Virus record (IMG/VR): IMGVR_UViG_3300028888_000055
Source: a virus
Lineage: Duplodnaviria > Caudoviricetes
Length of the DNA stretch: 64,000 nucleotides
Strand: one strand, 5' to 3'
Both the position numbers and the translations under genes were made by a program. This document shows positions 45,241-59,725 of the stretch, in pieces (the stretch's first letter is position 1; each line of letters opens with the position of its first letter). The notes beneath the pieces were generated by a model. The model saw nothing but the letters and a program-made list of their open reading frames with translations, was not told where the DNA came from and searched no databases.

Positions 45241-45261
45241 AATTTAATCGATTAAAAATAG

Positions 45262-45325
45262 AACCTCTTGAAGGATTCGAACCTTCATTTCTATATCTAG
45301 TGTACTGCCTTTGTACTAAAGAGGC
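45262..45325 (-). ncRNA. tRNA-like RNA with truncated anticodon arm
   Basis: GCCTCTT-TA-GTAC AAAGGCA GTAC-A-CTA GATA TAG-AAAT-GAAGG TTCGAAT CCTTC-AAGAGGT-T. Acceptor, D and T arms are intact, but the anticodon arm is 10 nt instead of 17. Confidence 0.75.
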
Positions 45326-45358
45326 ACCTTATATGCTTCAGGTTTTTATTTATGCTGA

Positions 45359-58229: not shown

Positions 58230-58233
58230 TGAG

Positions 58234-58892
58234 TACCAAGAGTGGGACTTGAACCCACACGGACGCAATGTCCAAGGGATTTTCTTACCACACTATGTTA
58301 CCATAGCCAAATATTAACAGTAGGATTTGCACCTACACAGAACTCCACTAAAACTTGAGTCTTTCGCTTATCTCTCGTTTACTAATTCCGACATATTAAT
58401 ATTTGTTGTGGTCTGGACTGTCTCTTTACCATATTGAAATTCTCGCGAGATTGAACCTATCATGTCACTCACTCTTCTGAGCCGAGTCGTAGTATTCAAA
58501 TTTCAATTTACGGTATCACCCGTTCAGTCTCTACACGATTATAAACTACTAGCAGTACATCGCTAGCCTGTTACGCTGTCATATTCCAATTTCAGATGCT
58601 TCTCACAAGTATGCCTACTTTATACACATCCTTCTTCATTAGACTACTCGTTTATTTTCGCTCGGTGTTGTCCTTACACATTATTGGTTAGTGTTGAGAT
58701 AAAGTCGCAGACTCGAACCTTGGCCTTCACTTCCGTTAAGTGATGTGCTTCCTATTACACCAAAAATATCTCATAAAAGGATTTTCACCGAATTTGGGTG
58801 ATTCTACATAGGAATTTCTTGCCTATGCACTCAAATTAATCTAAAAAAGATTTGTTAAAGTCCCTCGTGTCTACCTATTCCACCATCTTGGC
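58234..58892 (-). tRNA. tRNA-Leu (UAA) split by a group I intron
   Basis: 5' exon GCCAAGATGGTGGAATAGGTAGACACGAGGGACTT (58892-58858) and 3' exon AAAATCCCTTGGAC..GGTTCAAGTCCCACTCTTGGTA (58283-58234). Spliced loop CTTAAAA, long variable arm. Confidence 0.92.
58284..58857 (-). mobile_element. Group I self-splicing intron (574 nt), no ORF
   Basis: Inserted after U34, the canonical trnL(UAA) site; terminal omega-G at 58284. Core elements: P AAATTCGGTGAAA, Q AACACCGAGC, R GTAGAGACTGAAC, S AAGAGACAGTCC. Confidence 0.92.
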
Positions 58893-59339: not shown

Positions 59340-59363
59340 AATTTTATTTATTTTATTTGTTAG

Positions 59364-59725
59364 TGGAGTCGGAGGGATTCGAACCCTCGTCCGCGAATGT
59401 TACAATATCAACTTTCTACATGTTTATTTCATTCAATAGCTTAGTGGTAACAGCTAAATGAACAACTTCTGTTACCATATATCCTAGGTAAGATTTCATC
59501 ACATTACTAAGGCCCCTTATGTGATATATTGTTGTAACGATGCATTGTAAGTTCTCCAGTCCAACAATAAACTTTTGAACCAATGTCACGATGCTTACGC
59601 AGCAGCGCGATACGAATAATAATTTTCGCCAGTTAAAAGGAAGTGTTTGAAAGTTTAAAGAGTTATTTTCAACCTCTACATGCTTATCAACACCATATAC
59701 AAGCCGTCAAATCCAAGTCGACCCC
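59364..59725 (-). ncRNA. ssrA: tmRNA, tag peptide (A)GENYYSYRAAA
   Basis: 5' GGGGTCGACTTGGATTTGAC; 3' GGACGAGGGTTCGAATCCCTCCGACTCCA with G3:U70; TAACT-GGC resume context; tag ORF 59630-59595 ends in TAA. Confidence 0.95.

Follow-up and report, generated by a model that had tools for sequence, protein, structure and literature searches.

A tRNA-Gln-derived module in the P5a arm of a group I intron within a phage tRNA-Leu gene

The window analyzed here, a 64-kb stretch (64,000 nucleotides) of phage DNA, carries a tRNA-Leu gene split by a group I intron, and one arm of this intron contains a sequence that itself looks like a tRNA. The locus raises the question of where this sequence came from, whether it could still work as a tRNA and what it does inside a ribozyme. 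An earlier note, made from the letters of the window, had described it as a tRNA within an intron within a tRNA and had proposed two functions, either a structural module on P5 or a cargo released after splicing as a decoy or regulator.

The split tRNA-Leu gene and its intron

Every open reading frame of at least 200 amino acids in the window is located on the minus strand, and ribonucleotide reductase, DNA polymerase, helicase and exonuclease are among its PHROG matches. The split tRNA-Leu(UAA) gene lies among clustered tRNA genes and a tmRNA gene (59361-59725). Its joined exons (Table 1) form an intact 86-nt class II tRNA-Leu(taa) according to ARAGORN, with the intron placed after position 35 (between gactt and aaaat), a U preceding the 5' splice site and a G as the last intron base. 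The Rfam group I model RF00028 aligned end to end (model positions 1 to 253) with positions 58852-58389 at 29.5 bits (E value of 1.7e-5); large insertions in P5, P6 and P8 keep this under the gathering score of 50, and P9 is extended by a further ~100 nt up to the terminal G of the intron. No open reading frame of 60 or more amino acids was listed within the intron (58857-58284). Among ~50 homologous introns of phage tRNA genes, the P, Q, R and S segments are conserved and P4 covaries. Elsewhere in the window, a short tRNA-like gene (45260-45329, minus strand; Rfam, 48.6 bits) was not called by ARAGORN, and its anticodon region looks abnormal.

By site and predicted core, the intron resembles the IC3-type tRNA-Leu(UAA) introns of bacteria, cyanobacteria and plastids, which interrupt the gene at the same place (anticodon positions 34/35) and with which it shares a predicted P/Q/R/S core, the terminal G and the absence of an endonuclease gene. 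It differs from them in being phage-borne and approximately twice as long, with large P5, P6, P8 and P9 extensions, and its family spans many tRNA genes and remains under the gathering threshold of RF00028.

Table 1. Coordinates of the split tRNA-Leu gene, its intron and the tRNA-like module
Feature	Position	Strand	Description
Phage tRNA-Leu(UAA) host gene	58892..58233	-	5' exon 58892-58858; 3' exon 58283-58233; ARAGORN, introns allowed
Group I intron, 574 nt	58857..58284	-	Between anticodon positions 34 and 35; terminal G
P5 5' strand, TCCTT	58777..58781	-	Partner AAGGA at 58675-58671; Rfam alignment; conserved family-wide
tRNA-Gln-derived four-way-junction module, 79 nt	58695..58773	-	Distal part of arm P5a
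Closing stem (acceptor-derived)	58773-58767 (TGAGATA) with 58701-58695 (TATCTCA)	-	7/7 pairs
Linker TTTTTG, 6 nt	58766-58761	-	5' of the D-like hairpin
D-arm-derived hairpin, GTGT-AATAGGAA-GCAC	58745..58760	-	4 bp; 8-nt loop containing GG
Second hairpin (former anticodon arm), TCACT-TAACGGA-AGTGA	58727..58743	-	5 bp; 7-nt loop
T-arm-derived segment	58702..58726	-	AGGC, CAAGG-TTCGAGT-CTGCG, extra ACTT
Conserved hairpin "P5b," ACAC-TAACCAATAAT-GTGT	58676..58694	-	Adjoins the tRNA-like module

In the Rfam group I alignment, the module is inserted into the loop of P5, flanked by the two strands of P4 (P, 5'; Q, 3'), which is where the earlier note had placed it. The helices that it had listed are also present on the minus strand at 58773-58695, among them the second hairpin, in whose loop ACG is indeed central in the window sequence, and the T stem is as degenerate as described, with standard pairs at only three of five positions of the T-like part (CAAGG-TTCGAGT-CTGCG, 58722-58706). 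The canonical spacing that had been claimed for the cloverleaf, however, did not hold at the acceptor-to-D and T-to-acceptor junctions. Two extra 4-nt spacers, TTTT behind the 5' closing strand and ACTT ahead of the 3' closing strand, had been omitted from the string given there; 6 nt precede the D stem and 4 nt follow the T stem, against 2 nt and direct abutment in canonical tRNAs.

The family to which the intron belongs is found in diverse tRNA genes. At the loci analyzed with ARAGORN (L048 to L139), the hosts were tRNA genes for Leu (UAA), Arg (UCU), Met (CAU), Trp (CCA), Thr (CGU) and Ser as well as tRNA genes with UCA anticodons, with approximate intron boundaries, and such split genes are missed by standard tRNA finders unless long introns are allowed. 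One of these hosts, at locus L122, was labeled by ARAGORN as having the anticodon UUA, but it is more simply a tRNA-Leu(UAA), given the homology of its exons to those of the window gene (...GGACTT before the intron and AAAATCC... after it) and its long variable arm.

Contigs from four sheep and bovine gut runs, both metagenomes and metatranscriptomes, were compared with the locus. A spliced form of the tRNA-Leu gene of the window was not found in them, and the intron-less joints that do occur belong to other tRNA-Leu genes, since their variable arm differs. In the phage GenBank collection, the sole match to the locus was a 38-nt exon stretch. In three sheep/bovine gut RNA libraries, the summed contig depth on intron-core segments (58376-58704) was 10 to 1,000 times that on the flanking phage genes, and the excess on conserved intron-core segments was much smaller in the DNA run. 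As the depth is summed over many family members, this only hints at abundant and stable excised introns.

Ancestry and fold of the module

Pairwise alignment of the module with a tRNA-Gln(UUG) gene from a related phage locus (L050:1989-2060) gave 52 identities in 69 aligned positions. The acceptor stem (TGAGAT./.ATCTCA) matches at 12 of 14 bases, the D arm is nearly identical and the T loop is common to both. The alignment score was 67.5, approximately 7 standard deviations above the shuffled module, whose top score over all 197 tRNAs averaged 45.4 ± 3.3 and never exceeded 54.5, whereas control segments of the same intron (P8, P6 and P2-P3) did not score above their own shuffles. The 197 distinct tRNAs were drawn from the collected related phage loci, and 11 or 12 acceptor matches out of 14 were found only in this tRNA-Gln lineage; the next best outside it reached 10, and most tRNAs had 4 to 6. 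Besides, tRNA-Gln(UUG) genes with the same D-arm type exist in phages carrying the module. The alignment is decisive; on sequence grounds, the module is what remains of a gene of the tRNA-Gln(UUG) type, homologous to the phage tRNA-Gln(UUG). Relative to tRNA-Gln, it has 4 to 5 additional nt on each side of the junction, one base fewer in the 3' strand of the T stem and a rewritten anticodon arm.

We also built two models from the module copies. The covariance model R1, made from six copies with the cloverleaf imposed and searched against 634 kb of loci, matched ARAGORN tRNA genes in 31 of the 36 hits that followed the module copies themselves, with tRNA-Gln(UUG) first. The sequence-only model R2 matched the module copies alone and no tRNA, so the tRNA matches of R1 lean on the imposed cloverleaf.

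The module is a worn-down tRNA, without features required for decoding. A covariance-model scan, proposed in the earlier note as a check on the cloverleaf, went against a standard tRNA: the tRNA model RF00005 gave 15.5 bits, under the gathering score of 29, and even this fit needs three mismatched acceptor pairs, as the model absorbs the extra TTTT and ACTT spacers in that form. ARAGORN did not call the module at its default or at an 80% threshold, and its minimum free energy is ordinary compared to shuffled sequences (z = -0.6). In the loop of the second hairpin (UAACGGA), position 33 is an A, while the universal tRNA base is a U. The "anticodon" is ACG in the window and ACA in L062, although these are the two closest copies. 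The loop, 7 nt long in these two, is down to 5 nt in L122, and L126, L127 and L129 retain only 3 nt.

Taken on their own, the ordinary folding energy, the low Rfam score and the silence of ARAGORN would suit an ordinary group I peripheral element that is cloverleaf-like by coincidence. Such a chance resemblance is effectively refuted, on sequence evidence, by the alignment to one particular tRNA-Gln lineage, which includes non-universal acceptor bases and has no counterpart in the intron controls, and we give it practically no credence.

The same decay bears on the second function proposed in the earlier note, namely, that tRNA-processing enzymes excise the module after splicing as a small tRNA-like decoy or regulator RNA. 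A tRNA ancestry would suit such a cargo, as would the high summed depth of the intron family in rumen RNA libraries, though this measure is unreliable. However, the module has neither a conserved anticodon nor a free acceptor end, non-canonical 4-nt spacers stand on both sides of its junction next to a degenerate T stem, a complete tRNA was nested in none of the 48 family introns, and contigs from the sheep and bovine gut RNA libraries bridge both of its borders. We found no support for a released product, and a cargo appears very unlikely.

Every prediction of the fold agreed on the closing stem, the D hairpin and the second hairpin but not on the last arm. RNAalifold and the minimum-energy folds favored a hairpin formed by AGGCC and GGUCU, plus a short inner stem (UUG/CGA), over the T arm. 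For the window copy, the energies were -14.7 kcal/mol for this alternative, -17.0 for its own minimum-energy fold and -10.2 for the cloverleaf, and in L126 and L129 the AGGCC/GGUCU alternative is itself the minimum-energy fold (-18.1). Covariation is silent on the T arm because this stretch never varies, and the energy models take no account of the tertiary contacts on which a tRNA-type elbow would depend. Of the original description of a tRNA within an intron within a tRNA, the ancestry and three of the four helices stand, whereas the T arm as drawn finds backing neither in energy nor in covariation. A pairing of the CCAAGG of the module with the CCTTGG of the 3' exon was also considered and discarded, as L129 has the same CCAAGG yet sits in a tRNA-Arg gene.

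The T-loop sequence itself (UUCGA, closed by a G-C pair) is found unchanged in all carriers of the module. T-loops are known modules for long-range tertiary contacts (10.1101/2022.12.26.521914), and this intron family has repeated hairpins resembling T arms in its P5a, P6, P8 and P9 extensions, with 10 strict matches against 0.46 in shuffles, although two of the 10 are real tRNA T arms that result from wrong intron boundaries. The P9 extension of the window (58305-58405, minus strand) has an Rfam tRNA score of 17 bits, its best local alignment is to tRNA-Leu(UAA) (61.5 versus 48.2 ± 3.4 for shuffles), and it contains a perfect T-arm-type hairpin, GTAGG-TGCAAAT-CCTAC (58336-58320, minus strand), whose loop UGCAA fits the riboswitch-type T-loop consensus UGHAA (10.1101/2022.12.26.521914). 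Judging by these similarities, it is probably a second, weaker tRNA-derived domain. A T-loop-like GGTTCAATC is found in the P8 extension (58449-58457, minus strand), where the 3' context, CTCGCGAG, resembles the CTGCGAC of the module, but the tRNA likeness of the P8 segment as a whole does not exceed that of shuffles. In other family members, ARAGORN at a 90% threshold reported two inserts of tRNA shape whose "anticodons" are 2 nt long, one in L130 (intron positions 146-216) and one in L085 (intron positions 598-673), which lie in the P6 and P9 extensions, the one in L130 with a perfect T arm, GTTGGGTTCGATTCCCAAC.

Exchange and conservation of the P5a insert

A related phage contig, reached via a neighboring protein, carries a homologous intron in a tRNA-Arg(UCU) gene with ~36 unrelated nt at the position of the module. 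Searching with conserved core motifs extended the set to ~90 loci from rumen and gut phages, from which ~48 distinct introns were compared. Between P (AATTCGGTG) and Q (ACCGAGCGAAA), these introns contain the P5 stem, a variable insert and the hairpin ACAC-TAAYCAATAAT-GTGT, the latter (P5b) present with its TAAYCAATAAT loop in nearly all members irrespective of the insert. The P5a inserts are unrelated in sequence and range from 11 to >200 nt. The earlier note had also considered whether homologous introns would have unrelated sequence at this site, which turned out to be true of most relatives and untrue of six carriers, the window, L062, L122, L126, L127, L128 and L129 providing five distinct variants among six introns once the identical L122 and L128 are counted together. 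Exact-pattern scans anchored on the T part, on the D part, and on the closing stem plus the D part revealed no further variants of the module, and genome-contig scans for more copies returned zero matches and one chance match.

The insert behaves as a discrete unit. In the gut contigs, relatives of the window replace exactly 58695-58773 with 30 to 33 other letters, with joints at 58694>58774 and 58693>58772. When a tree of 37 introns was built with the P5a insert removed, the carriers occupied three separate positions: a group of L126, L127 and L129 (support of 100), the window with L062 (support of 97) and L122 apart, as the sister of the module-less L104 (support of 97), in which the P5 region is different and 136 nt long. 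This tree requires two or more gains or losses of the module. L122 (1814-1889) and L104 share 78% identity outside P5a and a common T-loop hairpin in P9, while their P5a inserts are wholly different; by sequence comparison, this pair is direct evidence for the swapping of peripheral cassettes between introns. We suggest that recombination at the conserved flanks, P5 and P5b, may be how related introns trade cassettes.

Within the module, substitutions preserve the helices. The outermost pair of the closing stem is U-A in three carriers and C-G in the other three, the stem of the second hairpin has a C-G to G-C swap in L122 that retains pairing, and the D stem shows two one-sided changes, also with pairing retained. 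Compensatory changes across carriers are thus found in two helices, each of them a single event, since there are only five variants in two or three lineages; a count of structure pairs on the six rows was underpowered and disturbed by a one-column misalignment of L122. The D loop is invariant, and so is the 28-nt stretch that starts at CCAAGG and runs through the closing stem, save for the outermost base, which covaries with its 5' partner. The only change in the T-arm-derived segment is AGGC to AGAC in the variable arm of L126, L127 and L129. A G-to-A change at module position 51 was considered as part of a tRNA-type 13-22-46 triple, but it can be read equally well as G-U turning into A-U within the alternative hairpin and so favors neither fold.

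Conservation is uneven. Compared to the window copy, the 5' part of the module (29 nt) is 86 to 100% identical (0 to 4 differences) and the 3' part (32 nt) is 94 to 100% identical (0 to 2 differences), while the second hairpin drops to 33 to 94%, with deletions in its loop. The values for catalytic core segments were 53 to 94% (R) and 68 to 95% (S), and the P2, P6, P8 and P9 extensions of the carrier introns could not be aligned. The D-like and T-like parts are, as far as these alignments go, at least as conserved as the catalytic core, and the anticodon loop decays.

This pattern is what separates a retained module from its main rival, a neutral relic, in which a tRNA-Gln gene or copy was caught in the tolerant terminal loop of P5a and is decaying there with no role, looking conserved through recent spread. 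Much would agree with such a relic: the P5a slot accepts nearly any sequence, the T stem, junction spacers and anticodon loop have decayed, and the carriers are scattered on the tree as recent exchange predicts. Indeed, the high conservation of the module could reflect recent lateral spread of the cassette instead of selection. Nevertheless, while a relic accounts for the decay and the patchy distribution, it does not explain why erosion is concentrated in the second hairpin, nor why the two flanking parts hardly change in the same intron pairs in which the catalytic segments R and S are down to 53 to 68%. Moreover, the three differently anchored searches gave one identical set of module sequences. 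We therefore consider a neutral relic rather unlikely.

Possible roles and significance of the module

The best explanation, which we hold with moderate confidence, is that the tRNA-Gln(UUG)-type remnant serves as a structural cassette forming the outer part of arm P5a. A ready-folded building block is the most likely role because the module cannot read codons yet hardly changes in related introns, and, of the two functions proposed in the earlier note, a structural module on P5 fits better with a hypervariable slot in which the D-like and T-like parts remain constant. The module would be attached to the intron through its former acceptor stem, providing a pre-folded four-way junction as a peripheral structural cassette in which a tRNA elbow, formed by the GG of the D loop and the T loop, may persist. 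The cassette would stabilize the P4-P6 domain, or at least leave it undisturbed, as P5abc does elsewhere, and would remain within the excised intron. This structural role is inferred from sequence comparison, and the module must be dispensable for the intron fold as such, since most family members do not have it.

Synthetases such as CYT-18 bind tRNA-like shapes and thereby promote group I splicing. By analogy, the retained elbow or T arm could be a handle that recruits a host or phage tRNA-binding protein (such as a T-arm-modifying chaperone enzyme, a synthetase or RNase P), although we find this distinctly unlikely. A protein bound in this way would aid folding or splicing or trigger turnover of the intron, linking splicing to the tRNA machinery. 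The invariant parts of the module are those that tRNA-binding proteins read (the GG of the D loop, TTCGA and an acceptor-like helix), and it is the anticodon that varies. However, the T stem is mismatched, closure of the acceptor end into P5a excludes aminoacylation and probably many enzymes too, and the module is absent from most relatives. A broader version, in which captured tRNA bodies are functional handles of phage tRNA-gene introns, their elbow being read by a tRNA-binding factor or docking either on the exons of the tRNA or on a further T-loop within the intron, also seems unlikely. If a handle of this kind did exist, splicing of tRNA-Leu would be coupled to the state of the tRNA machinery of the cell, and new ribozyme domains would regularly arise from tRNA genes.

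Returning to the structural cassette, extensions of P5 stabilize other group I introns. Like P5abc of the Tetrahymena ribozyme, the module elaborates the P5 arm of the P4-P6 domain in an optional and lineage-specific way, but it is made from the remnant of a tRNA gene rather than from an A-rich bulge and a tetraloop. Non-decoding tRNA-shaped domains also occur in larger RNAs such as tmRNA, the 3' tRNA-like structures of viruses and mascRNA. Their acceptor end is free or processed, and they engage the tRNA machinery, unlike the module, in which the acceptor helix is closed into the intron.

Full-text literature searches turned up no account of a group I intron with a domain derived from a tRNA. 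The nearest is a remark on Lak megaphages, in which one tRNA intron "itself may encode a tRNA" and the introns were called enigmatic (Devoto et al. 2019, PMC6784885). As in the window, a phage tRNA gene is split there by an intron that holds a tRNA-like sequence, but those introns were not described as group I (PMC6784885); in the window, a group I ribozyme of 574 nt has the tRNA-like part as one of its arms. The T-loop modules of riboswitches, RNase P and rRNA (10.1101/2022.12.26.521914) likewise represent reuse of a T-loop sequence within a larger RNA; the module took in the whole tRNA body (acceptor, D, anticodon and T parts) and not a single loop.

Group I introns are textbook modular ribozymes, and the origin of their peripheral domains is rarely traceable. 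Here, the source of the P5a cassette can be named, a tRNA-Gln gene from the same phage group, and the series of carriers indicates what was kept (the acceptor helix, the D arm and the T-loop region) and what was lost (the anticodon loop and the pairing of the T stem). For annotation, it means that introns conceal phage tRNA genes, including those with UCA anticodons, from standard tRNA finders. The ~50 introns with swappable cassettes are ready material on the effects of peripheral domains in ribozyme folding, and the module would represent a natural case in which a tRNA body has become an RNA scaffold, much like the tRNA scaffolds engineered to stabilize recombinant RNAs.
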